Origin: an uncultured Candidatus Saccharibacteria bacterium
GTDB lineage: Bacteria; Patescibacteriota; Minisyncoccia; Phycocordibacterales; PALSA-1337
DNA: 64,000 nt
Assembly (NCBI GenBank): GCA_964450345.1
Contig: CAYVEL010000001.1
Span: 16,671 to 80,670 of the forward strand
Direction of reading: 5' to 3'
Position numbers and translations under genes: made by a program. Under the pieces are notes generated by a model that saw only the letters and a program-made list of their open reading frames with translations, was not told the origin of the DNA and ran no database searches. Numbering within the stretch: the first letter of the stretch is position 1; every line of letters begins with the position of its first letter. Positions 1-41,358 of the stretch are shown in pieces.

Positions 1-101
1 TCTATTTTTACATCATTAAGCAAAGAGGTAAAGGCGATTTTTTGTTCAGCTGGAACATGTGTAAGCGCACATGCAACATAGATTTTTAGAGGAGTTTTCA
101 T
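1..101 (-). CDS. partial hypothetical protein (N-terminal ~33 codons; gene continues past window edge)
   Basis: ATG at 99-101 on minus strand opens frame MKTPLKIYVACALTHVPAEQKIAFTSLLNDVKI with no stop before coordinate 1. Confidence 0.3.
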   Translation of the reverse strand, partial: MKTPLKIYVACALTHVPAEQKIAFTSLLNDVKI

Positions 102-522
102 ATATAAAATCTATCCTAAACTACAACCCCAGATTACGCAATGATGAAACCAAAATAAGATATTTTAAATAGCTTTTGCTTATTGAGTAATTAATTCAAT
201 ATGATATATTCAAAGTACTACTTCCCTTGAGTAAGGAACAGAAGTAGTCGTAGTTACTCAATCACCTGTGTTTTAGACGAAAAAATGAAGATCTCCAAAG
301 TAGTGGCAAGCGAAAGGAAGTAATTGCGGATCCACAATGCCGCAACGAAAACAAAAGATCTAATTTCCCCAGAGGCGGGAAACTAATCAACGTCAAAAAA
401 CTATATCTTAAAGATGACAGGTGGTTTTTTATTTATATACCAATGATGAGAATCGATCGCGGGTTCTTTTTGCTTCACTCGGAGCGAGACTGCGATCAGA
501 CTTTCGATTCCTGCCGGGCAAA

Positions 523-552
523 TAAAAAAGCGACTTTCGTCGCTTTTTTATT
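523..552. terminator. hairpin AAAAAAGCGACGAAAGTCGCTTTTTT flanked by A/T runs (bidirectional-looking, directly downstream of tRNA-Arg on minus strand)
   Basis: perfect GCGAC/GTCGC stem with T-run; seen in sequence. Confidence 0.6.
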
Positions 553-556
553 TATG

Positions 557-628
557 TGCCCCCGGCAGGAATCGAACCCACATCAATGCCTTAGAAGAGC
601 ACTGCTCTATCCATTGAGCTACGAGGGC
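557..628 (-). tRNA. tRNA-Arg (anticodon TCT)
   Basis: minus-strand cloverleaf GCCCTCG acceptor / D-arm GCTC-AATGGATA-GAGC / anticodon loop CTTCTAA (U33, TCT, A37) / T-loop GGTTCGATTCC; 7-bp acceptor pairs with CGGGGGC, discriminator A. Confidence 0.85.
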
Positions 629-2132: not shown

Positions 2133-3116
2133 TTATCTTCCTTTAATAGCTAAACCTATAGCTGTCGCAAACTTTAAAGATTCTTCCCTATTTATTTCTG
2201 GAGCCTGATGAGCGGTATCACAAATATTTACCCAGACATTCGCTACCTCTACAGTGGGTTTAGATACTTTTCTAAGTTTATCTACGAATTCACGATTATC
2301 AGCATTTCTACCACAAATAATTATAGTATCTATTTCCTTTGCTGGCTCTTTGCTATACCAATAAGATTCCACCATTTCAATCTCTCTAAACAAATAAGCT
2401 AGAGTATCTGGTTTTCCATCTATCATAAAGTTATCTGGAATTTCTTTATCTACTAAATTAATAGTAGAAGTGTATCGAACTATTCCGTCTGAAACTAAAA
2501 ATAGTCCGGCTGCGCGTTCGTTATAATCCACCACCACCTTATGACCCTTATCACCTCTATGGACTACTGCTCTAACTAGAGGTCTACCCTCCACTTCCAT
2601 GGAATGTGTAACGAAACCAGCCTCATTAATTACAGAACTGTAATCTTCTACTATTCTAGAATGCATAGCTGTTACTGATACGAAAACTTTTTCAGAATCC
2701 TTACCTCTCGTTTCGATAATATCAAATTCAAATAATGTCTCTGCGGGAGAAATTGGAATATTTTCTTCTAAAATAAATTCAATGTTTCTTTTTATTGTTT
2801 TATCATCTCCATTACCCACCTCAGCAGTGAAAAGAAAACTCTTTTCTTCAGGAAGAGATGCGTTTACATAGGGAGTAGGACTAATTTTTCTAAGCTTTTT
2901 TAAAGCTTCTACCATTTTTTGTCTATCTAAAATCTGTCCGGAATCCATGACACCCTTAGGGATTGGTACTTCTGCGTATTTACCTAAAACTAAACGTCCC
3001 CCCTTCTCTTTTATCTCTGTTAAAAACAAAGCTTCGTCGGTAATATCTAAACCGACCCAACTAATTTTCAGAAAATGTGGTGGAGGAAAAATTTTAGTTA
3101 GTGTATCTACGAGCAT
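2133..3116 (-). CDS. pilM: type IV pilus assembly ATPase-fold protein PilM
   Basis: 327 aa; N-terminal actin-like motif ISWVGLDITDEALFLTEIK...GKYAEVPIPKGVMDSGQI typical of PilM; followed by PilN/PilO-like bitopic genes. Confidence 0.7.
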   Translation of the reverse strand: MLVDTLTKIFPPPHFLKISWVGLDITDEALFLTEIKEKGGRLVLGKYAEVPIPKGVMDSGQILDRQKMVEALKKLRKISPTPYVNASLPEEKSFLFTAEVGNGDDKTIKRNIEFILEENIPISPAETLFEFDIIETRGKDSEKVFVSVTAMHSRIVEDYSSVINEAGFVTHSMEVEGRPLVRAVVHRGDKGHKVVVDYNERAAGLFLVSDGIVRYTSTINLVDKEIPDNFMIDGKPDTLAYLFREIEMVESYWYSKEPAKEIDTIIICGRNADNREFVDKLRKVSKPTVEVANVWVNICDTAHQAPEINREESLKFATAIGLAIKGR

Positions 3117-4715: not shown

Positions 4716-4805
4716 GGAGGAGTGCCAGAGTGGTCTAATGGAACAGTCTTGAAAACTGTCGCCTTCGCAAGGGGGCCGTGAGTTCGAATCTCACCTCCTC
4801 CGCCA
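4716..4805 (+). tRNA. tRNA-Ser (anticodon TGA), CCA encoded
   Basis: GGAGGAG acceptor, anticodon stem ACAGT/ACTGT with loop CTTGAAA, long variable arm, T-loop GAGTTCGAATCTC, 3' CTCCTCC-G-CCA. Confidence 0.85.
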
Positions 4806-5009
4806 AATTAAAAACAACTGACTTCTGTCAGTTGTTTTTAATTTCGGAGAATAGGTATGATGAGAAAGGCGGAGGTATATTGCGAGCAGAAGCGAGCAAT
4901 ACCGAGCCGGGACCGCGGAAATTTTCAAGCGGCAGCGAGAAAATTATCCGTGGTCGAATCTCACCACCAAACCCTAGACTTCCTCCCCATTAAGCGCGAC
5001 AATACACTA

Positions 5010-5477
5010 ATGAAAAAAGCCACCATAACCTTCTGTGTGAAAGACGACCAGGTCTTACTAGCCATGAAAAAAATCAGCTTCGGATCAGGAAAGCTTAATG
5101 GTTATGGAGGAAAAATCGAACTAAACGAAACTCCAGTAAACGCAGCAGTCCGTGAATTAAGAGAAGAATCTGGACTCATCGCTGACCCTAAAGACTTAAG
5201 ACAAGTAGCTCTAATTAATTTTTATTTTGCTGGAGAAGCTATTTTTGAATGCTATATTTTTATAACAAATAAATGGACTGGTGAAGCAATAGAAACTGAA
5301 GAGATGTCACTACCAAAATATTATCCAATCTCTAATCTCCCCTTCGACCAAATGTGGGCTGCTGATACAAAGTGGATTCCTCTGATCTTAAATGGCGAAA
5401 CAATAGCCGCTGATATAGACTTCAGTAAGGATGGAAAAGTCGTAAATAGGTTTGAATATAAGGCTAAAATCTTCTAA
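5010..5477 (+). CDS. NUDIX hydrolase (MutT-like)
   Basis: Nudix box GGKIELNETPVNAAVRELREESGL; start moved to internal MKKATITF (ORF-track start 4857 would overlap tRNA-Ser terminator region). Confidence 0.8.
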   Translation: MKKATITFCVKDDQVLLAMKKISFGSGKLNGYGGKIELNETPVNAAVRELREESGLIADPKDLRQVALINFYFAGEAIFECYIFITNKWTGEAIETEEMSLPKYYPISNLPFDQMWAADTKWIPLILNGETIAADIDFSKDGKVVNRFEYKAKIF

Positions 5478-5543: not shown

Positions 5544-8500
5544 ATGACTAAAAACATTGTGTACTGTTTTATAGCCGTGCTAGCAATACTAACTATTTCC
5601 AAAGCTAATATTGCGATGGCTTATGACACAGTCATGCCTCCTTGTTATGTATATAATTCATCCCTATATACTAGTGGTACACAAAACATAACTCTTTTCT
5701 TAAAAGACGGAACTACAAAATCTGCAACAATAGCAAATCAGTCTACTCCCACAATATTAAGTAAAATCGGTTTTACAGCTAATAAAACATATTCCAATGG
5801 ACAGACAACTACATGTGCTACAGAAGCTTGGTGGTCATATTATCCAAACTACTGGTTAGCCAACACATGGATAAATAAAGAAATAACTCTATCAAACAAT
5901 ACAAGCGTTACATTTGATGGCTTCCCTGTCTGGATTAAAGATATAGTTAACGAAATACCAACAAACAGTTACAGCACAGACGGATATGGTTCTTACTGGT
6001 TCGACATTGACCCTTTTGTATATAACGGAATCGGAGATTTAAAAAATATAGCCGATGAAGATGCCGTTATTAAAGATATCGACACCAATAAAAAAATAAA
6101 CTTCAAACTAGGAAGTTCTGTTTCATATGATGTATCTAATTACACAGTAGATCAATCTGTATGGCCAAATAAAGAATATGACTTAATGTCAGCCCCTGCT
6201 ACCAACTGTGCCCTACTATCGGGAAACGCATCTAGTGATTCAATCAAAGTGGTATTCATGAGAAATGATGACACCGACGGAGTTTCTGATTTCCTAGACC
6301 AGGCATTAAAAATGAGAGACGGTATGGTCTCGAGAGTAGAAAATCCAGCTATATATACTTTTTACGCAGACTTAAAAAAGTGGCCAAAATCTAGTTCGAT
6401 AAGTTCAAGCTGTGGAACTGCTAATCAGTATATTTATATACCAAATGAAACTTATGTAATCACAGTTGCTGGTGGAATAACAAAGACAGTAAATGATCCA
6501 ATATTCTCTTGGGTTGATGCGAATATTACTAAGCCAAACGGTTTCGATCCTACAATAAGAATTCCTTCTTGGGGACACAGCGTGGCTCACAATACAAATC
6601 TTCTTCGTAAATATATTGAGTTAGGATTAGCTAGTGGTAAAAAAGTATTAGTCTTAGGTCATTCTATGGGTTCCCTAATCGCATACAATGTAATTACTAA
6701 AGAATATCAGGGTCAACCAGTAGTTGGAGTATATATTGATCCACCATACGCAGAAGATATATACAATGTAGTATTTTCAAGAATGATACCTGGAGTTTCT
6801 ACATTATTTAACAATGCATTAGCTGGAGGTATAGCTACTGACCCTGGATCAGAAATATGGACTCAAGGTAGAGGTCTAGTAAAAATGTGGACTCATGACC
6901 CATTCGGTCACGCTACATGGGACTCTACGATCATAGCCAACCTTCAACATCTAGCTAATTTCGTAAACGGACCTAGACTAATTGCTTTAAATAATTCCAC
7001 AATATCCCCTACTATACCAAGTGCACAAACAGCAATGGTAGACGCTCCTATTATTAAAAATTATTCTGCTGACTATGTAGACGGAGGAACTCTTGCGCCG
7101 GGTAAAAATCTAAAAATATATGCCGACAATCTAAGTCAGTATGGTAATAATATCTACATAGAAAATAAAATAGACCCTTCTATATCGTATTCTTTCTACG
7201 GACTACTACCTACTGATAATTACCTAAACATCACGCTTCCAGATATGCCGGATATAACCACAGAAACAGAACCAGGAGATTACTATGTTTACATAAGCGG
7301 ACGTGATAGCGAATTTTCAACACCAATCACAATTACAATAGATAGCGAGACCACTATTCCAGCTCCTACTATTTCAACAATATCAGGTACAACAGTACAA
7401 GGTGGTACAGTTACAGTGACAGGATCTGGATTTAATATTGGTAAAAATAACGTACGATTAGTAGTAGCCAACCCATCTGGAACAGTGAACAGTTTCAGTC
7501 ATCAAGTAGCGAACGCGCTAAGTGCATTTTGGGAAATGACAAAATCATTCTTCACCACCTCAAAAGCTCATAGCCAGACAGCATCAGTAGTACCTTACTA
7601 TGTCACAACAGCAGATTCTATAGACGGAAGATCTATAACATTTTCAATTCCTAATGACATAGCTCCAGGAAAATATACTGTTCAAGTTTCTCAACCAAAT
7701 GGAACATGGAGTGACGGATCTGTTATATCAATAGAAAAATCTTCATCTGGAAATACAGGAAGTGGTAGCGGAACAGTCATAGATGCTTCAACACCTACAA
7801 TGATATATAGATGTGACAGTACTTATGGATATTCTTTCAGAGACGAGAACCCAAACAAGGCTAACAACTACTCATTATTTAAAGATAAATATCTTTGTTA
7901 CAAAGCGAATGGTCAATCTGAAAACCCCCTTGAAGTAGGTTTAATATGTACAGATAACGGATACACCCTATATAGAAATAACAAAACTTGTTTATCAACA
8001 AAAACAGGTATAGATATACCTGTAACAGGAGCTAAAGCAACATATACATGTTCTTTAAATTGGTCGAAAACAGCTGTTCCAAACTTCTGTGTTAATTACT
8101 TAGGAAAGTGGGACTATGCCAATGAAACTCTATCCTGTCCTATTGGATACAACCTACAAAACAACAAGTGTTATATAAATAACATTAAAGGTCTAACAGC
8201 AAAATCAACAGAACTAGGAAAAGTATCCATCAGCTGGGATAAAAATATAATTCTTTTTGCAAAGTCATTTGTCATAGAAAGAGCAATATCTTCAACTAGC
8301 CCATTTTCATCTATTGCAACAATAAACGCTTCTTCAACAAGCTATATTGATATCAATCTTCCATATGACACTTCGTATGCATACAGAGCAAAAGTAATCA
8401 GAACAAACGATCAATATTCTTCATCTTCAAATATCGCGAGCGTAACAGTAAAAGGATACTCTGCACCTGTAGTATCAAAAGGATCCACAGCAATAACCGC

Positions 8501-9434
8501 AACATCAATTCCTATAATCATTAAAAGCACCGAAAAAGTTCCTTACTTTAATGTGTACACCTCATCATCTACAACCCTAGTAGCCAAAGCTACATCAACA
8601 CTAACAATTAGTAATCTAAGCCCAACTACAAAATACTGCTTCGTAGCATCAGGATATGTAAATGATAATTACTCAACAAAACTATCAGCACCATATTGTG
8701 CAACAACCCTATCTCCTATTGCGCCCGTATCTCTATCAATCGCAAGCAATAGTAGCGGTAAAATAAAACTGGCTTGGAGTAATAATAACGCAAAAAGTTT
8801 CAATTATATTTCTATAGAAAGAAGTATTGGAACAACAACTAACTTCTCAGAAATAGGAAACTCAACATCAACATACTATATAGATTCAACAGTTAGTCCA
8901 AAAACAAATTACTACTATAGAGTAAGAATTTCATATCCTTTTGGTTTTAGTGCATATTCAAATATCAAGCCAGTAACAACAGGAAGCTGGACTGTAACAA
9001 CTAATACTGCTACAACATCAACAGTTGTATCTAAATTAGTAACCAAAACAGCAACATCAACAGACAGTACTCAAACTAATACGATCAATGAATCGAAAAC
9101 ATCAGTAACCACAGAAAACAACATAACAGTAACGCCTACCCCAACTCCTACTTCTACTCCTGTTCCAACATCAACCCCTACTCCAACCCCTACACCTACA
9201 ACAAGCTCAACAATAATTAAAAAAGCCACAATAAGCGGCTATACATGTCCCATTGGTTATACATATAACACCGTATCCAAAACATGTAAAACAAATAGCA
9301 CTCGTACAAACACTGAGAGCACAAACCACGCAACACCCACACAAGCGCCAACAATAGTAAGCCCTATTCCTATATACTCTTGTCCTTCTGGATACACACT
9401 AAATACAGTTACAGCAACCTGTAGTAAGCATTAA
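5544..9434 (+). CDS. giant secreted/surface protein: signal peptide + lipase-like alpha/beta-hydrolase segment (GHSMG) + 3 FN3-like repeats + Thr/Pro linker + repeated Cys motifs
   Basis: N-terminal signal peptide (MTKNIVYCFIAVLAILTISKANIAMA); WGHS...KKVLVLGHSMGSLIAY nucleophile-elbow motif near nt 6560-6680; FN3-like W...Y.Y repeats at ~8190-8990; TPTPTPTSTPVPTSTPTPTPTPTT linker ~9130-9215; CPxGY(T/N)xN..C motifs x3. Confidence 0.75.
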   Translation: MTKNIVYCFIAVLAILTISKANIAMAYDTVMPPCYVYNSSLYTSGTQNITLFLKDGTTKSATIANQSTPTILSKIGFTANKTYSNGQTTTCATEAWWSYYPNYWLANTWINKEITLSNNTSVTFDGFPVWIKDIVNEIPTNSYSTDGYGSYWFDIDPFVYNGIGDLKNIADEDAVIKDIDTNKKINFKLGSSVSYDVSNYTVDQSVWPNKEYDLMSAPATNCALLSGNASSDSIKVVFMRNDDTDGVSDFLDQALKMRDGMVSRVENPAIYTFYADLKKWPKSSSISSSCGTANQYIYIPNETYVITVAGGITKTVNDPIFSWVDANITKPNGFDPTIRIPSWGHSVAHNTNLLRKYIELGLASGKKVLVLGHSMGSLIAYNVITKEYQGQPVVGVYIDPPYAEDIYNVVFSRMIPGVSTLFNNALAGGIATDPGSEIWTQGRGLVKMWTHDPFGHATWDSTIIANLQHLANFVNGPRLIALNNSTISPTIPSAQTAMVDAPIIKNYSADYVDGGTLAPGKNLKIYADNLSQYGNNIYIENKIDPSISYSFYGLLPTDNYLNITLPDMPDITTETEPGDYYVYISGRDSEFSTPITITIDSETTIPAPTISTISGTTVQGGTVTVTGSGFNIGKNNVRLVVANPSGTVNSFSHQVANALSAFWEMTKSFFTTSKAHSQTASVVPYYVTTADSIDGRSITFSIPNDIAPGKYTVQVSQPNGTWSDGSVISIEKSSSGNTGSGSGTVIDASTPTMIYRCDSTYGYSFRDENPNKANNYSLFKDKYLCYKANGQSENPLEVGLICTDNGYTLYRNNKTCLSTKTGIDIPVTGAKATYTCSLNWSKTAVPNFCVNYLGKWDYANETLSCPIGYNLQNNKCYINNIKGLTAKSTELGKVSISWDKNIILFAKSFVIERAISSTSPFSSIATINASSTSYIDINLPYDTSYAYRAKVIRTNDQYSSSSNIASVTVKGYSAPVVSKGSTAITATSIPIIIKSTEKVPYFNVYTSSSTTLVAKATSTLTISNLSPTTKYCFVASGYVNDNYSTKLSAPYCATTLSPIAPVSLSIASNSSGKIKLAWSNNNAKSFNYISIERSIGTTTNFSEIGNSTSTYYIDSTVSPKTNYYYRVRISYPFGFSAYSNIKPVTTGSWTVTTNTATTSTVVSKLVTKTATSTDSTQTNTINESKTSVTTENNITVTPTPTPTSTPVPTSTPTPTPTPTTSSTIIKKATISGYTCPIGYTYNTVSKTCKTNSTRTNTESTNHATPTQAPTIVSPIPIYSCPSGYTLNTVTATCSKH

Positions 9435-9766
9435 TTTTTAAGGTATTTTTCTCCGTACTTCCTCATAACATCCACCACCCCAGCGAGATGTTTACCTTTC
9501 TCTGTCATTTTATATTCTACTTTTGGTGGCATGCCTCCAAAATCGTTTCTGTTAATTAAACCTTCTTCTTCCATAACCTTCAGTTTATTAGAAAGAGTTC
9601 TAGAACTGATTCCATCTAACCCACTAAGCAAATCACCAAAACGCTTTGATCCACCAAGCAGATCTCTGACAATCAAAATAATCCAGGTATCACCAATAAG
9701 TGATGCTACCCTGGCAATTGGACATGGAGCACAGAGCTTTTTGTATGTCTTTTCGCTTCTTAACAT
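9431..9766 (-). CDS. HxlR-family winged-helix transcriptional regulator
   Basis: CPIARVASLIGDTWIILIVRDLLGGSKRFGDLLSGLDGISSRTLSNKLKVMEEEGLINR...PPKVEYKMTEKG matches HxlR/MarR-like DUF24 pattern; divergent from nitroreductase. Confidence 0.85.
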   Translation of the reverse strand: MLRSEKTYKKLCAPCPIARVASLIGDTWIILIVRDLLGGSKRFGDLLSGLDGISSRTLSNKLKVMEEEGLINRNDFGGMPPKVEYKMTEKGKHLAGVVDVMRKYGEKYLKN

Positions 9767-23101: not shown

Positions 23102-24769
23102 ATGTTAAATTTCGATGAGGATAAGCATAATAGTAGACTTAAAGATTTAAGAAAAAAGGAAGAGGAAGACCTAGCACAGATAATCGCTTCTAGGCATGGT
23201 CTTGGTTATGCTGATCTATCTAGCGTATCTATATCTGGAGACGCTCTAAAAACAGTGGACGAAAAAGATGCAAGAGAGGCAAACATTGCGCCCTTTACCC
23301 TAAAAGACAACAGATTAAAAGTAGCTATACTATCCCCCGCTGACGAAAAGACACAGATGGCATTAAAAGAATTAGAGAGAAAAGGTTACATAAACGAATT
23401 ATACGTCGCATCTACATTAAGCTTAGCTAGAGCTTGGGAAACATATAAAGAATTGAACAGCACACACGCAACATCCGCAGGATCTGTAAGTATTTCAAAT
23501 GATGAAATCGTTAAAGTTATCGATTCAAAACCTCACATAGAAGACATCCAGAAAAGCATCGCTGAGTTATTAGAAAACAAAAGTGGATACAGAACTTCTA
23601 GAATTCTTGAATATATTATCGCTGGAGCATTAGCTACAGAAGCATCAGACATACACATCGAACCAGAAGAAGGATACACTCGTGTTAGATATAGATTGGA
23701 TGGTGTACTTAACGATGTGGTACAGATTGATTTAATTACATATAACCTAATTCTTTCCAGAATTAAGCTTATTTCTGGCCTTAAACTAAACATTAAAAAA
23801 GATTCTCAGGACGGTCGTTTCAGTATTAAACTTCAAACAAAAAGCATAGAAGTGAGAACATCTATTCTTCCTGGTGCATACAGTGAATCAATCGTGATGA
23901 GAATTCTAAATCCAGATTCTATTGCTGTACCTTTCGAATCTCTTGGTATTGAACCGAAATTGATGGAAGTTTTCCTAAGAGAAATAGCTAGACCAGAAGG
24001 TATGATTCTTACCACAGGTCCAACAGGTTCTGGTAAGACCACCACTCTTTATGCTTTCCTAAGAAAGATTCATTCTCCTGATGTAAAAATAATCACCATC
24101 GAAGACCCTATTGAATATCACCTACCAGGAATAGTGCAGACACAAGTTAACGAGGAAGGTTACACATTCCTAGATGGTCTACGTGCAGCATTAAGACAAG
24201 ACCCTGAAATAATCATGGTCGGTGAAATTCGAGATTCAGAAACAGCAAAAATTGCTATTAACTCTGCCCAAACAGGTCACTTGGTTTTCTCAACACTACA
24301 CACGAATAGCGCCGCTGGTGCCTTCCCTCGTCTAATCGACCTAGGAGTTAACCCAAACGTTATTACTTCATCTATTAACTTAGTTATTGGTCAGAGACTA
24401 GTGAGATGTTTATGTAAATTCTGTAAAAAAGAAGTCCCTATCGAAGGTGAAACAAAAGCTCTTATAGATAGAATATATGCGAGAATCCCGGAAGATTTCA
24501 AAGGAGTTCAAACAGAAAAAATGTGGATGGCTGTAGGATGCTTAAAATGTAATAAAACAGGATACAAGAGCAGAACAGGAATACACGAAGTAATACTAAC
24601 AAAAGATTCTGCCGTAGAAGCCCAAATCGTAAGACAGGCCAGCGCTCGTGAAATAGCAGAAACCGCTAGATCACAAAAAATCCCCAACCTAGCTGAAGAT
24701 GGAATACTTAAAGTATTAAGTGGTACCACTTCCCTAGATGAGGTTCAAAGAGTAGTTGATATACAATAG
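23102..24769 (+). CDS. pilB: type IV pilus assembly ATPase PilB (GspE family)
   Basis: ASDIHIEPEE, Walker A LTTGPTGSGKTTTLYAFL, His box HLVFSTLHTNSAAGAF, C-terminal Cys4 CLCKFC..CLKCN. Confidence 0.9.
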   Translation: MLNFDEDKHNSRLKDLRKKEEEDLAQIIASRHGLGYADLSSVSISGDALKTVDEKDAREANIAPFTLKDNRLKVAILSPADEKTQMALKELERKGYINELYVASTLSLARAWETYKELNSTHATSAGSVSISNDEIVKVIDSKPHIEDIQKSIAELLENKSGYRTSRILEYIIAGALATEASDIHIEPEEGYTRVRYRLDGVLNDVVQIDLITYNLILSRIKLISGLKLNIKKDSQDGRFSIKLQTKSIEVRTSILPGAYSESIVMRILNPDSIAVPFESLGIEPKLMEVFLREIARPEGMILTTGPTGSGKTTTLYAFLRKIHSPDVKIITIEDPIEYHLPGIVQTQVNEEGYTFLDGLRAALRQDPEIIMVGEIRDSETAKIAINSAQTGHLVFSTLHTNSAAGAFPRLIDLGVNPNVITSSINLVIGQRLVRCLCKFCKKEVPIEGETKALIDRIYARIPEDFKGVQTEKMWMAVGCLKCNKTGYKSRTGIHEVILTKDSAVEAQIVRQASAREIAETARSQKIPNLAEDGILKVLSGTTSLDEVQRVVDIQ

Positions 24770-28876: not shown

Positions 28877-31420
28877 ATGAAACTGTTAACCAAAATCAAA
28901 CGTCGTTTTAAGGCACATTGGATAAGAAATGCCATTTTCTTAATCTTGTCCTTATTCGCTATTTTAGGTGGAATAGTCGCTTTATGGGCCACCACAATAG
29001 AAATACCAGACCTATCTTCTTTTAATGACAGACGTGTGGAACAATCAACTAAAATTTTCGATAAAACAGGAAAAGTGCTTTTGTACGATATTCATGCAAA
29101 CGCAAAAAGAACACTAGTAACATCTGAAAACATATCTGATAACGTTAAAAAAGCCACTGTAGCCATAGAAGACGATCAATTCTATTCGCACATAGGATTC
29201 AGACCAACCTCTATTATAAGAGCCTTCCTTAAAAATCTAACTTCTGGTGGCCTAGCTCAAGGAGGATCTACTATTACTCAACAAGTAATTAAAAATACAG
29301 TATTAACAACAGACAAGACTTTTACCAGAAAAATAAAAGAGATTATCCTTGCTCTTAAACTCGAAAAAGCTTTAACAAAAGATCAAATACTAACAACATA
29401 TCTAAACGAAACTCCTTATGGAGGTAACATTTATGGTATCGAGGAGGCTTCTAGACAGTTTTTTGGAAAAACAGCCAAAGAAGTTGATCTAGCTGAAGCT
29501 GCTTATTTAGCAGCTTTACCACAAGCGCCTTCATATTTCTCCCCTTTCGGAAAACATAAAGACAAATTAGATGATAGACAAAAACTTGTTCTATCTAGAA
29601 TGCTTGAAACCAAAGTTATAACTCAAAAAGAATACGACGAGGCTAAAAAAGAAGTTGTAAAATTTGAAACAAAAGCAGAAGGAAATATTCGAGCACCACA
29701 TTTCTCAATGATGGTACGTGATTATCTAATAGATAAATACGGCGAAGATAAGCTAATGAACAGTGGTCTTAAAGTAACCACCACTCTAGATTATGATCTG
29801 CAACAAAAAGCTGAAAAAATAGTTACAGACTACTCGAAATCATTAGAAGAAAACTTTAATGCCAGCAACACAGCAATGATTGCTATAGATCCTAAAAAAG
29901 GAGACATCTTGATGCTTGTTGGTTCTAAGGATTATTTCGATCAATCAATAGACGGTAACGTTAATATTGTTACAGCTCTAAGACAACCAGGTTCAACATT
30001 TAAACCTTTCGTATATGCTACAGCATGGTCAAAAGGATATACACCGGAAACAGTATTATTCGATGTTGAAACAGAATTCTCTTCAGAATGTAAACCTGAT
30101 GGAACACCTAAAAAAGAAGGCGACGACCCTACTAAAATATGTTACTCCCCTGTTAACTACGACGACATATTCGAGGGACCGATGCAAATGCGTAAAGCTC
30201 TAGCACAATCCAGAAACATACCTGCTGTTAAAACTCTTTATTTAGCAGGAACATATGATTCTATTAAATTAGCTAGAAAAATGGGAATCGATTCCCTAGG
30301 AGATCCTAATAGATACGGTCTAACATTAGTTCTAGGAGGAGGAGAAGTCTCTCTACTTCAATTAACAAATGCTTACGGAACATTCGCTAATGAAGGAGAT
30401 TATATTCCTTCTAGATACATATTAAAGGTTGAGGATTCTAATGGAAATATATTAGAAGAAGCGAAAGATGCTAAGCCAGAAAAAGTTCTTGATACTAATA
30501 TTGCCAGAGAAATATCAGATGCTTTATCAGATAAGAAAATAAGACTTGATTCTCTAAATAATTTATTAGGAAACGTATCCCAGCCACTCGCTGTTAAAAC
30601 AGGTACCACAAATGACTATAAAGATGTTTGGATTGTAGGATATTCTCCAAATATAGTTGTGGGAGCTTGGGCTGGTAAAAACGATAATACTCCTATGCAG
30701 AGAAAAGTAGCTGGAGTTATTATCTCCCCTGTTTGGTCCGCCTTCATGCACGAAGCTTTAAAAGACAAACCTGTAGTTAGCTTTAAATCTCCAGAAAAAA
30801 ATCCCGATGATCTAAAAGCAGTGCTAAGAGGTGTTTGGCAGGGTGGAATATCTTACTTTATAGATAAAATTTCTAAAAAAGTAGCCACTGAATATACTCC
30901 TGATTTAGCAAAACAAGAAGTTGTGTTTAACGGAATACACTCAATCCTATATTGGGTAGATAAAGATAATCCTAGAGGTGATATTCCTAAAGACCCATCT
31001 AAAGATTCACAGTTTGAAAACTGGGAATACGGTGTGAGAAATTGGGCTAAACAGTATATGGAAGAAAATCCTAGTTTTAAAGAAGCAAAATCAATATCTG
31101 TTCCTGAAGAAAAAGACGATGTTCATACAGCTGAAAATACACCTTCTGTTAAATTAGTAATAAAAGACAAAAAAGAATCTTACATTGCAAAAGATTCTCT
31201 GGAACTATCTATAGATGGTAAATTCCCAAATAAAATAGAAAAAGTTGAGTTTTATTTAAACAATGTATTACTTGGAAAAATATACAATGAGAAGGATACG
31301 TTAAAGATTAACCTATCTGACATACTGTCTACCCAAGAAAATAGTGAGCTAGGTGTAAGAATATATGATTCATTACTAAATACAGCTCAAGATTCAGTAG
31401 AAATTAAGATTAGCGACTAA
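28877..31420 (+). CDS. class A penicillin-binding protein (glycosyltransferase GT51 + transpeptidase)
   Basis: N-terminal TM; EDDQFYSHIGF and GGSTITQQ (GT51); STFKPF, SRN, KTGTT (transpeptidase). Confidence 0.9.
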   Translation: MKLLTKIKRRFKAHWIRNAIFLILSLFAILGGIVALWATTIEIPDLSSFNDRRVEQSTKIFDKTGKVLLYDIHANAKRTLVTSENISDNVKKATVAIEDDQFYSHIGFRPTSIIRAFLKNLTSGGLAQGGSTITQQVIKNTVLTTDKTFTRKIKEIILALKLEKALTKDQILTTYLNETPYGGNIYGIEEASRQFFGKTAKEVDLAEAAYLAALPQAPSYFSPFGKHKDKLDDRQKLVLSRMLETKVITQKEYDEAKKEVVKFETKAEGNIRAPHFSMMVRDYLIDKYGEDKLMNSGLKVTTTLDYDLQQKAEKIVTDYSKSLEENFNASNTAMIAIDPKKGDILMLVGSKDYFDQSIDGNVNIVTALRQPGSTFKPFVYATAWSKGYTPETVLFDVETEFSSECKPDGTPKKEGDDPTKICYSPVNYDDIFEGPMQMRKALAQSRNIPAVKTLYLAGTYDSIKLARKMGIDSLGDPNRYGLTLVLGGGEVSLLQLTNAYGTFANEGDYIPSRYILKVEDSNGNILEEAKDAKPEKVLDTNIAREISDALSDKKIRLDSLNNLLGNVSQPLAVKTGTTNDYKDVWIVGYSPNIVVGAWAGKNDNTPMQRKVAGVIISPVWSAFMHEALKDKPVVSFKSPEKNPDDLKAVLRGVWQGGISYFIDKISKKVATEYTPDLAKQEVVFNGIHSILYWVDKDNPRGDIPKDPSKDSQFENWEYGVRNWAKQYMEENPSFKEAKSISVPEEKDDVHTAENTPSVKLVIKDKKESYIAKDSLELSIDGKFPNKIEKVEFYLNNVLLGKIYNEKDTLKINLSDILSTQENSELGVRIYDSLLNTAQDSVEIKISD

Positions 31421-31670
31421 GTTTTATATCTATAATATCGAATCCTCCTTCTTTAATAGCCTCCATAATCTTATCTTTCTTTAAAATAACAGTATTTTTT
31501 TCAGCGCTTCTAATATTTAGGAGTGCTGTTTTTTGTTTTATGTTTATTTTGTCTGAATCTATATTTATCTTACAGATTTTTCTGAGAATAGCAGATAAAC
31601 CTATTCTGTTTATGTCAGCATCGTCTGTTATCTTCCTATACTTCTTTAGAAACCCCTCTATTTTCTGCAT
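31410..31670 (-). CDS. small protein downstream of dnaN, DUF721/DciA-like (tentative)
   Basis: 86 aa; LLNIRSAEKNTVILKKDKIMEAI...IIDIKL resembles DUF721 core; position after dnaN; start overlaps dnaN stop. Confidence 0.3.
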   Translation of the reverse strand: MQKIEGFLKKYRKITDDADINRIGLSAILRKICKINIDSDKINIKQKTALLNIRSAEKNTVILKKDKIMEAIKEGGFDIIDIKLSR

Positions 31671-32770
31671 TAGCGATTCATAGGCATTACCAAATAGAGA
31701 AAGCTAGTATCTCCATTACTTCTTAGGATAACAGGCCTCTGAGGTCCATTAAACGATAAATAGACACTGTCCGCATAAATAGATTGAAAAACATCTGATA
31801 AATATTTTTGATTGAAGTTCGCTGAGTAGTCCTCTCCTTCTACACTGGCACTTATTACGGTTTTATTCTCACCAACATCACTATTTTTTGTTGTCAGAGT
31901 AATTGTTTTATTTTTTACTGAAATAGATATGTTTGCTTGATTAAACTTATCTGTAAATAAAGTAGATACTTTTAAAGCATTTATCAAATCATGCTTTAGA
32001 GCCACAACTTCAGAAGATGTAGACTTCGGAATAATCTGTTTATAATCCGGGAATGAGCCGTTAATCAATCTTGAGACTAGATAAACACCTTCTTTTTCAA
32101 AGGTTATTTGGTTTTTATCAAAAGAAATATTAATATCCTGGTTTCCATTATCAAAAACCTTTATTATTTCGGGAACATTTTTAAAAGGTATTAACAAAGA
32201 AAGCTCTCCTTCTATGTCCACTGCCTTAAATCTCTTTTCTGATAATCTAAATGAATCTGTAGCAACAAACACTATATCGTTCTGGTCTTTATATATATAA
32301 ACACTAGAAAGTTCTGGTTTTATAGATGAAACAGAAGCTGAAAACCATACTGACTTAAAGCCAAGTGTTAATTCTTTAGAATTTATCTTAAAAGATGATC
32401 CTTCTGTAATTCTAGGGATAGCTGGGTAATCGTCTTTAGGATATGTCTTAATAACTGCATTGTTCTTATTTCCTTCTATTTTTAAATTACCATTATCTTC
32501 TTCTAGAATAATTGTTTTGTCGGCTGCTATACCTGATATATATGAATTAAAGATAGCTGAAGGAACTACCACCTCACCTTCTTTAATAACTTTTACTGGA
32601 ATATCGAGTTCTATTCCTATGTCTAGGTTTGTAGATTTAATCTTCAAAGAGTTTCCTGTCGCACTCAAATGTAAACCAGAGAGTATCGGTAGATTTAGAT
32701 TCTTACCGGTCATACGTTCACTTAGGCTAATCGCCTCTTGAAGTTTTTCTCTAACGCATTCGATTTTCAT
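31670..32770 (-). CDS. dnaN: DNA polymerase III beta sliding clamp
   Basis: 366 aa, MKIECVREKLQEAISLSERMTGKNLNLPILSGLHL N-terminus, three-domain length, downstream of dnaA. Confidence 0.9.
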   Translation of the reverse strand: MKIECVREKLQEAISLSERMTGKNLNLPILSGLHLSATGNSLKIKSTNLDIGIELDIPVKVIKEGEVVVPSAIFNSYISGIAADKTIILEEDNGNLKIEGNKNNAVIKTYPKDDYPAIPRITEGSSFKINSKELTLGFKSVWFSASVSSIKPELSSVYIYKDQNDIVFVATDSFRLSEKRFKAVDIEGELSLLIPFKNVPEIIKVFDNGNQDINISFDKNQITFEKEGVYLVSRLINGSFPDYKQIIPKSTSSEVVALKHDLINALKVSTLFTDKFNQANISISVKNKTITLTTKNSDVGENKTVISASVEGEDYSANFNQKYLSDVFQSIYADSVYLSFNGPQRPVILRSNGDTSFLYLVMPMNR

Positions 32771-33007
32771 ATTCTTTATATATAAGAGAATTATTTTTAA
32801 TTAATAGAAGTGTGGATATGTGGAGAACTTTTTATATCTTTATTTATTAAGGGTTTTTTCTTTATAAGTTTTTAACATTTTGTTGATAACTACTTTATAA
32901 AATTTGATAACTTTTGCTTTTTTGTTTTTATACACTTTTTATTAGTAGTTTTTCAGTAGGTTTTCCCATACTTTTCCACAAGGATTCTAACAGGTTACCA
33001 ACAGGTT
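32771..33007. promoter_or_regulatory. dnaA-dnaN intergenic AT-rich region with DnaA boxes (candidate oriC/DUE)
   Basis: TGTGGATAT at ~32811 and TTTTCCACA at ~32975 (1-mismatch DnaA boxes), long A/T tracts. Confidence 0.55.
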
Positions 33008-34363
33008 TTAAACATTCATCATCGCTCTAAGCTGGCCGATCTCCTTACTTAACTCCGTATCTGTTTTAATATCGTTTTTAATTTTCTCACAAGAATGGAT
33101 GACTGTAGTATGGTCTCTTCCACCAAGCTTCTCTCCTATTGAAGGGAATGAAACATTAAAATCTTCTCTTAGAATATACATAACTACTTGGCGAGGTTTA
33201 ACCACTTCTTTCTTTCTGGTTTTATCGTAAATACTTTCTTCTTCTATATTATAAAACTGAGCAACGGTCTTAACAATCTCTTTAATAGCAACGTTTTTCC
33301 TAGGTCTAGCTGTGTCTCTTACGATGTTTTTAATATCAATAATACTCAAAGGGCGACCCTTAATCTGTGTTTGTATGACAATACTATTTAAAACACCTTC
33401 AAGCTCTCTTATATTCCCTGTAACTGTTTCAGAAAGGTAATCAATAACATCTTGGTTTAATATTAGATTGTAAGTTTTTGCCTTTGATTGAAGGATGGCT
33501 GATCTAGACTGAGCGTCTGGTGAAGGAATATCAATAATCATTCCAGCTCCGAATCTAGACTTTAGACGGTCTTCCAGATTCTGAATATAGTTAGGATGTT
33601 TATCTGAAGAAAAGATAATCTGCTTAAAATTGTCGTATAAATGATTAAACAAATGGAAAAGCTCTTCCTGGAATTTATCCTTTCCAGAGAAAAATTGAAT
33701 ATCATCTACAATTAAAAGATCATATTTTCTATACTTTTCTTTAAACTGGGCCATTCTACTGTTTTGAATAGCATCCCAACACTCAGTTCCGAATTTTTCA
33801 GAGGTTAAATAGAATACTTTCTTATTTGGAAAATGTTTTTTAACATGATTACCTATAGCTTGGGTTAAATGGGTCTTCCCTATTCCGGTATTACCGTAAA
33901 TAAATAGAGGGTTATAAACTTTTCCTGGATTTTTAATAACAGCTTGAGCTGCTGCGTGGGCAATTTCATTAAAAGGACCAATAACAAAGTTTTCAAATGT
34001 ATATCTAGGGTTTAGATTGTCTTCTTTATTAACATAAAGCTCGTTTAGAGGTAGTTCATTATACATATGAGCCTTTATCGCTGCAGCAGATGTTTCGCAC
34101 TTCTTGGGGTCTTTTTGCTCGTTGATGACATATTCTAGACCACGAACAGCATCATTGTGATTTCTTAGTATTCTTAAGATTGAATTATGAAACTTCTTCC
34201 AAAGCCACTCTTTTATGAATGTGCTTGGAACATTCAGATAAACTATACCGTCTTCTACTCTGTGGATGTTGGTGTCTTTAAACCACATCAAATAATCACT
34301 CTTAGAAAGGGTTAGTTCTATTTCTGTGCGAACATTTTCCCATAGTTTATTGTGGTCGTGCAT
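33008..34363 (-). CDS. dnaA: chromosomal replication initiator DnaA
   Basis: Walker A IYGNTGIGKTHL, box VII, C-terminal DnaA signature GGRDHTTVIHS; start set at MHDHNKLWENV (ORF-track 501-aa version runs into rpmH and DnaA-box cluster). Confidence 0.9.
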   Translation of the reverse strand: MHDHNKLWENVRTEIELTLSKSDYLMWFKDTNIHRVEDGIVYLNVPSTFIKEWLWKKFHNSILRILRNHNDAVRGLEYVINEQKDPKKCETSAAAIKAHMYNELPLNELYVNKEDNLNPRYTFENFVIGPFNEIAHAAAQAVIKNPGKVYNPLFIYGNTGIGKTHLTQAIGNHVKKHFPNKKVFYLTSEKFGTECWDAIQNSRMAQFKEKYRKYDLLIVDDIQFFSGKDKFQEELFHLFNHLYDNFKQIIFSSDKHPNYIQNLEDRLKSRFGAGMIIDIPSPDAQSRSAILQSKAKTYNLILNQDVIDYLSETVTGNIRELEGVLNSIVIQTQIKGRPLSIIDIKNIVRDTARPRKNVAIKEIVKTVAQFYNIEEESIYDKTRKKEVVKPRQVVMYILREDFNVSFPSIGEKLGGRDHTTVIHSCEKIKNDIKTDTELSKEIGQLRAMMNV

Positions 34364-34511
34364 TTGTTTTGTAAGTTGGAAATAATTATATACCTGTGGA
34401 TAGAATTTAGAACTTGTGGAATACTTAAAAATATGTTGAGAAGCTGTTAATAACCTGTGGACACAAGAAAATTTGATTTTTTGCAAATAATGTTCTAAAC
34501 TCTTATTCATC
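34364..34511. promoter_or_regulatory. dnaA upstream region with three DnaA-box-like TGTGGA elements
   Basis: TGTGGATAG, TGTGGAATA, TGTGGACAC within ~90 bp. Confidence 0.55.
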
Positions 34512-34658
34512 ATGTCGTTTACTTATAGTCCAAACAAAAAGAAGAGAGCACAGGCACACGGTTTTCTAATGAGAACAAGAACAAGCAAGGGTAGAAAGGT
34601 TCTCGCAAGAAGACGTGCTAAGGGAAGAAAGTCCCTTACTGTTTCTGCTGGTAGATAA
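34512..34658 (+). CDS. rpmH: 50S ribosomal protein L34 (not in ORF track, <60 aa)
   Basis: translation [48 protein letters not shown]; TAATG overlap with rnpA. Confidence 0.85.
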
Positions 34659-39202: not shown

Positions 39203-39544
39203 CTATTTAGGCGATATGCTAGGTTTAATAGAAGCGGTTGTTGGTATTTTAACACCAAGCTTGTCTTCAGCTTTCACAAACATAATTATGGCTATTATTC
39301 CTACTGTTGTTTCTGGTAGAACTTCTAATACTGGTATCAGACCAATAGTAATAGACGCTAGATTTGTTGCTAATTTTTTTCCACTGAATACAGAGATTCC
39401 TTTTAGATAGAAAAATACATTTAGAGCCACCCATCCGATTGCGGTTACAATACTTCCTATTGCGGGTATCCAGTTTAATAAATCCATTATCACCGCTACG
39501 GTCACTAGTCCTCCAATAGCCATTTTACTCAGACGGTCATTCAT
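39203..39544 (-). CDS. small polytopic membrane protein (3 TM) of T4SS-like operon
   Basis: hydrophobic segments; stop overlaps nothing, start overlaps VirB4 stop (39544). Confidence 0.45.
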   Translation of the reverse strand: MNDRLSKMAIGGLVTVAVIMDLLNWIPAIGSIVTAIGWVALNVFFYLKGISVFSGKKLATNLASITIGLIPVLEVLPETTVGIIAIIMFVKAEDKLGVKIPTTASIKPSISPK

Positions 39545-41358
39545 TATCTTGATGATTGAGCGAAATCGTCCTTCGCCTGTTTAATAGCTAACATCTGTTC
39601 TGGTTTTGTAGATATTAGCTGATCTTCCGCATAAGAAGCCTCGATTTTAATAGCTACGTGCTTCATTCCTACGAAGAAGATGCCCTCTCCTACTCCTGAT
39701 TCTAGAAGTAAGTATTTCTCTTCGTCTGTTAGGTTAAAGATTGTTTGAATCTTATCTACTGCGGTCGGAGATTGTTTAAGTAGAATCTGAATAGAAGAGT
39801 TTGTAACAATAGGTGTTCCATATGGTGACTTTAGGAAGTCGTCCACGTCTTGTGTGATTGTAGCCATTCCTAGCCAGTACTTTCTACCTCTCTTAGCAAT
39901 CATAAGAAGGAATGAAGCTGTATCTTCAGTTTTCATCATCCACCATGCCTCGTCGATAACAAGTAATCTCTTCTTTTTAACTCTCTTAACAGCATTCCAG
40001 ATGTGGTGTGTAACTATATACATGGCTACAGGTTTAAGCTCCTCCTCCATGTCTTTAATACAGAAGACTACGAATTTCTTGTTTATATCAATGTTTGAAG
40101 GTTTGTTTACGAAACCAGACCATGTACCACGAGTGAACTTAGATAGTCTTTGTACTAATGATTCAGCACCCTCCATTCCAGCTAGTACAAGTTCAAAGTC
40201 AGAAAGTAGAGGTGGTTCTATATTAACGAAATCAGATTCAGGTGTAATATCCTTAAGAGCGTAAGTCTCTGTTATTGCTCGGTCGATGATAGCATCTTCT
40301 TCCTTTGTTAGACCTCCGAACATAATTCTAAATAGTCCTACAAGGTTAATGATGTGTGATCTTAGAACATCTGATCTAGCTTCGTCTGGAGCAGGAGCTG
40401 GTAAGTCGAATGGATTAATATGGTTATCAGAGTTAAGAGATATGTTTATGAATCTACCTCCTGTAGTTTCTGCCATGTCTCTATACTCACCTTCTGGATC
40501 CACTACTATTACCTCTGTATCGAACATCAGTGTTCTAAGGATTTCTAGTTTTGTACAATATGATTTACCAGAACCAGATTTAGCGAATGTTACAGAGTTG
40601 TAGTTTTCTAGACTGAATCTGTCGAATAGAACAAGGCTGGAATTGTGTCTGTTTATACCATATAGAATACCTTTTTCGTCAGTAAGGTCGAATGATACGA
40701 ATGGGAATATGCTAGATAGAGGTGAAGAGTTTAGTTTTGAATGAATATTTAGTTCATCACTACAGATAGGTAGAATACTCTTATAACCTTGTTCTTGCTG
40801 GAATAAAGCAGGTTTAACATACACTAGTTTAGCCTCAAGAATAGACTTAATTTCAGACTCCATTTTATCAAGTTCAGATTCGTTGCTTGCGTATAGTGTT
40901 ATGTAAACTCCTACTTCAAACATTTTTTCTTGAGCCTGCATTAAACTGTCTCTAAGATTTTCTAGATCTTGGTATGCAGTGTCTAGCATTGGGTCACGAA
41001 CCAGTCCCCTCTTCTCTCTGTCACCTATCTGGCTTTGTACCTCAGCTACTTTCTTTTGGAAATTTTTAAGTATCGAAGCTGTGTCGATTGGATGTATAAA
41101 AATAGAAACGTTAAAAACTTTATCTAGATTTATTATTGGAGCGAACCAGCTATCTGTTAGGAATCTTGGGTATGAGATTACGAAGAAAGTTCTAGCTACT
41201 TTTTCTCCGAGATGTAATTCCTTTGGTGTTATCTTTAAAGCTGAAGGAGCAATAATGTCCTGCAGTTCAAGCATTCCAGAATTATATATTTCATCAGGTA
41301 AAACAGCTGTTATGGCTGTGTTATTTTTTTTACCAAATAAGTTTGAAAAAAATCCCAT
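39544..41358 (-). CDS. VirB4/TrbE/TraE-family conjugation-type ATPase (ATPase portion)
   Basis: Walker A FAKSGSGKSY; Walker B RLLVIDEAWWMM; ...RKYWLGMATITQDVDDF... arrangement typical of VirB4. Confidence 0.8.
   Translation of the reverse strand: MGFFSNLFGKKNNTAITAVLPDEIYNSGMLELQDIIAPSALKITPKELHLGEKVARTFFVISYPRFLTDSWFAPIINLDKVFNVSIFIHPIDTASILKNFQKKVAEVQSQIGDREKRGLVRDPMLDTAYQDLENLRDSLMQAQEKMFEVGVYITLYASNESELDKMESEIKSILEAKLVYVKPALFQQEQGYKSILPICSDELNIHSKLNSSPLSSIFPFVSFDLTDEKGILYGINRHNSSLVLFDRFSLENYNSVTFAKSGSGKSYCTKLEILRTLMFDTEVIVVDPEGEYRDMAETTGGRFINISLNSDNHINPFDLPAPAPDEARSDVLRSHIINLVGLFRIMFGGLTKEEDAIIDRAITETYALKDITPESDFVNIEPPLLSDFELVLAGMEGAESLVQRLSKFTRGTWSGFVNKPSNIDINKKFVVFCIKDMEEELKPVAMYIVTHHIWNAVKRVKKKRLLVIDEAWWMMKTEDTASFLLMIAKRGRKYWLGMATITQDVDDFLKSPYGTPIVTNSSIQILLKQSPTAVDKIQTIFNLTDEEKYLLLESGVGEGIFFVGMKHVAIKIEASYAEDQLISTKPEQMLAIKQAKDDFAQSSR

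Follow-up and report, generated by a model that had tools for sequence, protein, structure and literature searches.

The gene and its surroundings

The window (the whole stretch of DNA analysed, 64,000 nucleotides) carries an open reading frame for a modular protein in which a probable export signal is followed by a family-specific N-terminal region, a compact alpha/beta-hydrolase domain and a series of beta-sandwich and cysteine-hairpin modules (Table 1). The frame has exactly the coordinates, strand and length given in the initial annotation. The ATG at 5544 is its unambiguous start, since an in-frame stop lies five codons upstream. The convergent gene downstream is HxlR, whose stop overlaps the stop of the hydrolase-protein gene, and a RuvX gene is also among the neighbours. 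No conserved gene neighbourhood was found.

The protein begins with MTKNIVYCFIAVLAILTISKANIAMA, followed by YD. On direct reading, this N-terminus has the n-, h- and c-regions and the A-x-A site of a probable signal peptide, as had been proposed, and amino acids 4–24 are the only hydrophobic window in the protein by Kyte-Doolittle analysis. For the accompanying proposal of tethering no anchor was found: a motif search of all 1296 residues found no LP.T[GAS], the Kyte-Doolittle scan of the whole length found no C-terminal hydrophobic segment, and direct reading of the sequence found no lipobox, the context of Cys8 being unlike one. Threonine and serine make up 13% and 12% of the protein.

Table 1. 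Features of the hydrolase-protein gene, in nucleotide positions of the window
Feature	Residues	Position	Strand	Basis or remark
Open reading frame	1–1296	5544..9434	+	ATG start; stop codon at the 9434 end
Signal peptide or N-terminal anchor	1–25	5544..5618	+	sequence reading; probable cleavage after A-M-A
Family-specific N-terminal domain	26–~232	5619..6239	+	Cys34/91/222; common to relatives
Remnant of an M64-like metallopeptidase, N-terminal part (tentative)	~233–300	6240..6443	+	alignment with relatives
Alpha/beta-hydrolase domain	303–483 (about 303–485)	6450..6992	+	HMM match, predicted fold, residue conservation
Ser374, nucleophile elbow		6663–6665		G372-H-S374-M-G376
Asp399		6738–6740	+	in invariant DPPY motif
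His451		6894–6896	+	
IPT/TIG-like beta-sandwich 1	~500–600	7041..7343	+	model match
IPT/TIG domain 2	~603–732	7350..7739	+	Pfam TIG 23.2 bits, cut-off 20.9 (aa 608–720)
Cys-rich block	755–878	7806..8177	+	8 Cys (aa 757–876); two-Cys hairpins including C865-PIGYNLQNNK-C876
Three FN3 domains	883–970, 971–1056, 1057–1145	8190..8978	+	Pfam, PDB, internal repeats
Thr/Ser/Pro-rich linker		8979..9236	+	includes TPTPTPTSTPVPTSTPTPTPTPTT
Two C-terminal two-Cys hairpins	C1235–C1248, C1280–C1293	9237..9434	+	sequence

The alpha/beta-hydrolase domain

Residues ~303–485 form an alpha/beta-hydrolase domain, and its Ser-Asp-His set is conserved throughout the family. The Pfam model Abhydrolase_6 matches at 29.1 bits in the whole protein and at 33.8 bits in the fragment (cut-off 26.3), and the predicted model, a parallel beta-sheet with flanking helices, superposes on known alpha/beta-hydrolases. 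The predicted core, about 180 amino acids with five strands, is shorter than the small esterases and lipases compared, and its helical insert (aa 404–427) is modelled with lower confidence. A single-sequence AlphaFold model reached a pLDDT of only 35.7. Identity is only 10–16% to Lip_vut5 (6nkg, a rumen metagenome lipase), XCC1541 (2qjw), the feruloyl esterase 7ebo and the monoacylglycerol lipases 7e04 and 6qe2. Searches of PDB sequences with the hydrolase, or with a profile of its family, gave no significant match (best E 0.13, with the profile). Foldseek against the PDB and BFVD likewise gave none for the hydrolase, the significant local matches being limited to the Ig-like domain. NCBIfam yielded no family for the protein and PHROGs no match.

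The initial annotation had placed the hydrolase with class-2 lipases and PGAP1-like enzymes, and neither kinship was borne out. Lipase_2 gave no match at E<=5 or E<=1 (protein or fragment), nor at E<=0.01 in 22 family members. In hhalign, the family alignment A1 and a working sequence of Bacillus subtilis LipA were aligned over only 16 columns, at the elbow, with a probability of 27%. PGAP1 (PF07819) scored 15.5–17.4 bits, below its cut-off of 24.3, over profile positions 87–118 (about 30 residues), and matched 3 of the 22 members at E<0.01. What LipA (class-2, family I.4) and the PGAP1-like deacylases have in common with the present family is the (A/G)-H-S-M-G pentapeptide and small size, but not membership at the HMM level; the acid of LipA is also at a different position. 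PE-PPE (PF08237) reached 22.0–23.2 bits (cut-off 21), covering just profile positions 11–68 of 228. The elbow of PE-PPE, cutinase and mycobacteriophage LysB is G-Y-S-Q-G, whereas here it is G-H-S-x-G, and no evidence supporting a mycolyl or cutin substrate was found for the family.

Candidate catalytic residues

In the predicted model, a strand (367–373) leads into Ser374 and a helix (375–387) leaves it, with a pLDDT of 95; the GHSMG nucleophile elbow noticed originally thus appears as expected of such an elbow. Among 37 sequences of about 30% identity, Ser374 is kept in 36 (one has Cys instead), and Asp399 and His451 are kept in all. Around the serine of this motif, then, a hydrolase fold is predicted and a Ser-Asp-His set is conserved, in the sequence order nucleophile, acid, histidine. 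In the model, the invariant Asp399 comes straight after the next strand beyond the nucleophile helix. Also invariant is W439-T440-x-G442, and the glycine of the putative oxyanion loop is conserved (the Gly310-Gly311 loop comes after the first strand). GHSxG, DPPY, WTxG and H-D-P-F are diagnostic of the family, the DPPY and W-T-x-G motifs setting it apart from the small esterases and lipases compared. Other candidates were rejected. The second GHS (aa 344–346, within WGHS at 343–346) has an unconserved His345 and lies in a loop before a helix, not after a strand. As catalytic acids, Asp433 and Asp452 are kept in just 29 and 27 of the 37 homologues.

The N-terminal region

The N-terminal domain is also found in relatives P0004, P0007, P0010, P0020, P0039, P0041 and P0047. 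It has no Pfam match, and a PDB search with its profile A3 yielded no match at E<=10. The segment that follows (aa ~233–300), which went unmentioned in the initial annotation, carries the motifs KVVFMR..DFLDQ..FYADL..SSCG..YIYI and aligns with the N-terminal part of a domain of relatives that resembles the secreted metallopeptidases of Peptidase M64 (IgA peptidase-like). About a dozen relatives have an M64-like HExxH metallopeptidase directly N-terminal to the hydrolase, and HExxHxxxxLxDEY is present in P0008, P0010, P0019 and P0039. The HExxH..DEY core, about 170 amino acids, is a clean alignment gap in the present protein and in P0004, P0006 and P0007. Since this core is missing and the protein has no HExxH, it cannot be a metallopeptidase. 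We tentatively read the segment, from its alignment, as a decayed remnant of an M64-like domain; the assignment is tentative because the Pfam M64 scores of the relatives are all below the cut-off.

Modules downstream of the hydrolase

Two IPT/TIG domains, which the initial annotation did not mention, come after the hydrolase. The first is attached to it throughout the family, and the model of residues 503–600 matches the TIG domains of NFAT, NF-kB and EBF. The second contains an amphipathic loop insertion (about 40 amino acids, aa ~648–690) whose conservation was recognized by eye in the sequences of relatives. The Cys-rich block includes degenerate hairpin copies at residues 802–816 and 836–849, and its matches to EGF- and Sushi-type Pfam models are all below threshold. 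The three FN3-like repeats reported earlier are present: repeat 2 scores 26.9 bits with Pfam Interfer-bind/fn3 (cut-off 21), repeat 3 matches the FN3 domains of LAR and titin in the PDB (E 6e-4), and repeats 1 and 3 share 40% identity (E 7e-11). The TPTPTPTSTPVPTSTPTPTPTPTT linker is there as well.

Three copies of a CPxGY motif had been described after this linker. The count is right, with CP.GY...C motifs at residues 865, 1235 and 1280 (at least three copies occurred in 0 of 2000 shuffles), but only two of them follow the linker, the one at 865 preceding the FN3 domains. The motifs are separate units of 12–14 residues with two cysteines each, and a Thr/Pro spacer of 31 residues lies between the two C-terminal hairpins. 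Since they are isolated two-Cys hairpins, the earlier term "Cys-knot-like" is wrong, and no cystine-knot Pfam match was found in the protein. Relatives P0005 and P0007 have the same YSCP.GY..C hairpins near the C-terminus, and P0005 terminates in one.

A rare family

An exhaustive HMMER search found 46 family matches among 1.84 billion (1.84e9) representatives, none with a name, and no solved structure was found among the relatives. The exhaustive search was used in place of a word-indexed one, which with the full-length query returned the protein itself and two FN3-only matches, and with residues 201–520 or alignment A1 as the query returned nothing, the protein itself included. In the genome, metagenome and viral scans, 2, 3 and 0 loci were true relatives, the others being generic hydrolases matched at the elbow; the window's own genome was not among the loci of the genome scan, although the protein's VLVLGHSMGS fits the scan pattern. 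Relatives are fused or adjacent to secreted peptidases (M64-like and S8). These associations are with peptidases, not with lipid genes, and they fit a general exo-hydrolase arsenal and lipid scavenging equally well. Nothing relevant was found in the literature on lipases of Patescibacteria or CPR.

Proposed function

We favor the view, with a probability of roughly 70%, that the protein is a Sec-exported, disulfide-rich modular exoprotein whose sole intact enzyme module is a reduced serine alpha/beta-hydrolase of a rare family. As a secreted enzyme it would be genuine but of a rather ordinary kind, a small, divergent relative of esterases and lipases on an Ig-like stalk. The hydrolase would work by a covalent acyl-enzyme route in which His451, oriented by Asp399, activates Ser374. 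The oxyanion hole would be made up of the Gly310-Gly311 loop together with the main-chain NH of Met375, and the two helices at residues 404–427 would serve as a cap over the active site. Ester hydrolysis, of the carboxylesterase or lipase type, is probably the chemistry. The two IPT/TIG domains, the two-Cys hairpins, the three FN3 domains, the Thr/Pro linker and the terminal hairpins are non-catalytic and probably serve as a stalk for spacing and binding, on which the enzyme would be displayed extracellularly.

The nature of the substrate divides the readings. A less likely alternative is that the enzyme attacks proteins or the cell wall, either as a serine peptidase or amidase or by deacylating envelope polymers (O-acetyl, D-alanyl or LysB-like esters), and works in a secreted degradative set with M64-like and S8 peptidases. 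The fusions and neighbours fit such a set, but fusion or adjacency does not identify a substrate, and the M64-like core is lost from this very protein. No alpha/beta-fold peptidase family (S9, S33 and similar) matched above its Pfam cut-off, Hydrolase_4/S33 scoring 14.6–18.3 bits against a required 27. The initial idea of a true class-2 or PGAP1-like lipase, tethered to the cell of a lipid-auxotrophic episymbiont and taking fatty acids or lipids from the host, is doubtful. The lack of a Lipase_2 match, the sub-cut-off PGAP1 score, the short LipA alignment, the missing anchor and the company of peptidases in place of lipid genes all speak against it, and a general lipid-uptake device would not be as rare as this family is at its observed frequency. 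We consider it rather unlikely that the relatives make up a rare, undescribed family of modular exo-enzymes in probably episymbiotic ultra-small bacteria, in which a common TIG/Cys-hairpin/FN3 stalk carries an M64-like zinc peptidase head, a minimal Ser-Asp-His hydrolase head whose acid follows the sixth strand, or both, either head being exchangeable or dispensable, with only the serine hydrolase left here to open or harvest the host envelope (lipids or envelope esters).

Whether there is an active enzyme at all can be asked on two grounds. Ig-like, FN3 and hairpin repeats make up most of the protein, and in this lineage the M64-like domain next to the hydrolase is already in decay, as would suit a pseudo-enzyme that is purely an adhesin or a structural surface fibre. 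This is most improbable: nucleophile, acid and base are invariant at such low identity save for the one Ser to Cys change, and the oxyanion-loop glycine is conserved with them. The other ground is the motif. G-x-S-x-G is expected 0.49 times per shuffled protein and occurs at least once in 40% of shuffles, so it is the HMM match, together with fold and conservation, that gives GHSMG its significance, not the motif alone. These results refute the view that GHSMG arose by chance in a low-complexity surface protein devoid of a hydrolase fold, and we give it practically no weight.

The favored reading, a secreted serine hydrolase on a stalk, has parallels in modular bacterial exo-enzymes whose spacers are FN3, Ig-like or TIG domains. 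Chitinases and PHB depolymerases, for example, have FN3 linkers, and in such enzymes as in the present protein a catalytic head is joined to beta-sandwich spacers in tandem and to a Thr/Pro linker. The present protein differs in its two-Cys YxCPxGY...C hairpins, which resemble the central hairpin of Sushi/EGF modules, and, unlike the modular exo-enzymes, it has no recognized substrate-binding or wall-anchoring module.

The analysis delimits a small unnamed alpha/beta-hydrolase family, defined by its four motifs and currently annotated as "hypothetical protein". In a lipid-auxotrophic episymbiont, should the organism be one, nutrient acquisition could plausibly involve a secreted esterase or lipase, though not as a general solution given the rarity of the family. 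The protein offers a candidate enzyme with three named predicted catalytic residues in a soluble domain of about 190 amino acids, from a poorly sampled, probably Patescibacteria-like lineage. The proteins of the source lineage that were looked up are nearly all singleton clusters at 90% identity.

Reading frame, fold and predicted catalysis

The reading frame first proposed for this exported protein is borne out (5544..9434, +, ATG start, 1296 aa), and its start is fixed because an in-frame stop lies five codons 5′ of the ATG. The sole hydrophobic segment of the entire protein (aa 4-24) is followed by A-M-A/Y, which reads as a typical signal-peptidase I context. A motif search found no LPXTG-type motif in the protein.

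The GHSMG motif pointed out in the initial annotation is present at aa 372-376, and the segment around it is an alpha/beta-hydrolase. Pfam Abhydrolase_6 scores 29.1 bits with the whole protein and 33.8 bits with aa 301-490 (cut-off 26.3), and weaker matches centred on the elbow come from PE-PPE, LIDHydrolase, Hydrolase_4, PGAP1, LCAT and Thioesterase. An AlphaFold model made with a 22-sequence alignment of the module (pLDDT 87.3, pTM 0.81) has the strand-Ser374-helix elbow; single-sequence prediction reached a pLDDT of only 35.7. Because the significant local Foldseek matches were to the Ig-like domain alone, with none to the hydrolase, the latter is placed as a distant member of the fold.

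Conservation was counted over 37 aligned homologous modules of about 30-37% identity. Asp399 (within an invariant D-P-P-Y motif), His451 and W439-T440-x-G442 are present in all 37, Ser374 in 36 and Gly311 in 35. The sole exception at Ser374 is a Cys (GHCMG), found in relative P0016 (aa 377-381), which retains the Asp and the His. Asp433 and Asp452, considered as the catalytic acid, are not invariant (29/37 and 27/37). A second GHS (aa 344-346) does not qualify as an elbow: it sits in a loop that precedes a helix, and its His varies among the homologues. The nucleophile helix is succeeded by a strand and then, immediately, by Asp399, a less common placement of the acid that is reported for pancreatic-type lipases. 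The Ser-Asp-His order, the modelled elbow geometry and the conservation argue for a predicted active serine hydrolase.

Segments of the window protein, with the basis or context of each assignment
Feature	Residues (aa)	Window position	Basis or context
Family-specific N-terminal domain	26-232		common to relatives P0004, P0007, P0010, P0020, P0039 and others
M64-like remnant	~233-300	6240-6443	alignment with N-terminal part of the relatives' domain
Strand, then Gly310-Gly311 loop	303-308 (strand)		AlphaFold model
Strand	338-340		AlphaFold model
Helix	347-363		AlphaFold model
Strand, nucleophile, helix	367-373, Ser374, 375-387		AlphaFold model
Strand, acid	393-398, Asp399		AlphaFold model
Two lower-confidence helices	404-427		AlphaFold model
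Short strand after these helices	436-437		AlphaFold model
His451 segment	448-451		AlphaFold model
Long helix	461-483		AlphaFold model
Seven-stranded sandwich	503-600		AlphaFold model
TIG-like sandwich	500-600		after the hydrolase
Second TIG domain			after the TIG-like sandwich; Pfam TIG above cut-off
Cys block, three FN3 domains, Thr/Ser/Pro linker, two terminal hairpins			in that order, after the second TIG

We favor, at a probability of roughly 0.7, the reading that this is an exported serine hydrolase of the esterase/lipase type, displayed outside the cell on a stalk. Catalysis would proceed via Ser374, His451 and Asp399, with an oxyanion hole formed by the Gly310-Gly311 loop and the NH of residue 375, and aa 404-427 may serve as a cap. 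Built of beta-sandwich and hairpin modules, the stalk would display the enzyme outside the cell.

Affiliation and alternative readings

Kinship with class-2 lipases and with PGAP1, as first suggested, did not hold up. Lipase_2 gave no match at E≤5 or at E≤1, nor among 22 family members at E≤0.01, and hhalign of the family profile with B. subtilis LipA (an approximate LipA sequence) covered 16 columns at the elbow with a probability of 27%. The PGAP1 score is below cut-off and covers about 30 residues. The window protein has no NCBIfam family match, the best E among PDB sequences searched with the family profile is 0.13, and the only relative that has an accession, MDO8575125.1, is annotated "hypothetical protein." The hydrolase is a divergent unnamed family inside a very well known superfamily, and the protein that carries it is a modular exoprotein of a familiar type.

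The initial observation is confirmed, and its interpretation is supported in part only. A lipase that scavenges host lipids is possible but unsupported, and we consider it rather improbable. About as likely is that the enzyme acts on proteins or on the envelope in company with secreted peptidases, a tentative proposal to which relatives lend some weight through their M64 fusions and S8 adjacency. A pseudo-enzyme is very unlikely, given that the triad is invariant. As these three alternatives on substrate and activity refine or negate parts of the exported-hydrolase reading, the likelihoods need not sum to one. By itself G-x-S-x-G means nothing in this protein, being expected 0.49 times per shuffled sequence and occurring at least once in 40% of shuffles; for GHSMG in its present setting, a chance motif is excluded.

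A putative peptidase remnant and the stalk

The N-terminal domain has no Pfam or PDB match. The domain that aligns with the M64-like remnant runs on, in about 12 relatives (including P0008, P0010 and P0019), into HExxHxxxxLxDEY, about 205 residues upstream of the hydrolase elbow; Pfam assigns it weakly to Peptidase_M64, every score being below cut-off. From the window protein, P0004, P0006 and P0007 some 170 residues of this core are missing, and none of the four contains HExxH; in P0039 the N-domain and the M64-like domain occur without the hydrolase. Since the core is lost in some members and the hydrolase is absent from P0039, the family, as judged from its sequences, mixes two types of enzyme head on a common stalk, and the window protein is predicted to keep only the serine hydrolase intact. 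What interests us most in the protein is the vestigial peptidase, along with the swapping of heads among its relatives.

Inserted in a loop of the second TIG domain is a conserved amphipathic stretch of about 40 aa (aa ~648-690, window ~7485-7613, NSFSHQVANALSAFWEMTKSFFTTSKAHSQTAS). In relatives it consists of an amphipathic helix and then A-x-A-Q-T (P0007, ending IESLFGSKAHAQTAS; P0010, ending IRSLFSLNKASAQT), and it might serve to bind membranes or interfaces. The A-x-A-Q-T ending mimics the N-terminal signal-peptide cleavage region of the same proteins. P0004 has, at this loop, a far larger insert that contains Cys hairpins.

The three FN3-like repeats are genuine: for repeat 2 the Pfam score exceeds the cut-off, repeat 3 matches FN3 structures from LAR and titin, and repeats 1 and 3 are homologous (40% identity, E 7e-11). 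Three strict CP.GY...C motifs also exist (aa 865, 1235 and 1280), a number reached in 0 of 2000 shuffles. Just two of them follow the Thr/Pro linker, where all three had been placed; the one at aa 865 precedes the FN3 repeats, within an 8-Cys block and beside degenerate copies. The motifs are not Cys-knot-like: each is a separate hairpin of 12-14 residues with two Cys, and the only matches, all sub-threshold, are to EGF and Sushi-type half-motifs.

Distribution and genomic setting

The hydrolase family is rare. With aa 1-600 as query, exhaustive HMMER search across 1.84 billion cluster representatives gave 46 proteins at E<1e-3, 35 of them below 1e-10, sharing a conserved core at aa ~300-600. 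True relatives occur in two of 185,579 species genomes and on three JGI metagenome contigs; none were found in viral contigs. Word-indexed searches with the protein, a fragment or the family alignment returned nothing useful: a 320-aa fragment failed to recover the window protein although it is in the database, and the alignment also came back empty. Such negatives are not trustworthy for proteins of biased composition, rich in Thr, Ser and Asn.

The gene is solitary, with a NUDIX gene on one side and, on the other, a convergent gene for an HxlR-family regulator (9431-9766, -) whose stop overlaps its own at 9431-9434; a divergent nitroreductase gene comes after the regulator. The NUDIX ORF (4857-5477) begins about 50 nt past a tRNA-Ser (4716-4805), and its NUDIX domain starts from residue 59; translation probably begins at an internal Met, residue 52 (MKKATITF...). 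Around the relatives the neighboring genes are unrelated housekeeping ones, with two exceptions that hint at a secreted-hydrolase neighborhood. In L017 a family member adjoins genes (139-1527 and 6593-7993) for a peptidase that is M64-like, scoring below the Pfam cut-off, and for a T4SS-pilin-domain protein; in L018 one adjoins a gene (7495-9054) for an S8 subtilase that has a PKD domain.

The window (GC ~35%) is probably a chromosomal origin region, with genes for DnaA, DnaN, PBP1a, PilM, PilB, a VirB4/TraG-like ATPase, an M23-LysM peptidase and PolA. It spans the probable replication origin region because dnaN and dnaA are adjacent (31670-34513, -); PBP1a is next door (28877-31420). Nearly all window proteins looked up are singleton clusters at 90% identity. 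Such features would suit an organism of Patescibacteria/CPR-like type. Between 35815 and 47735 (-), large ORFs of 415, 341, 338, 710 and 508 aa without Pfam matches surround the VirB4/TraG-like ATPase (39544-41358) and a bacterial TSP3 repeat protein (46755-47735), and this run is possibly a cluster resembling type IV secretion loci. Genes of the type IV pilus, for PilM and the PilB-type ATPase, lie far apart, at 2133-3116 and 23102-24769.
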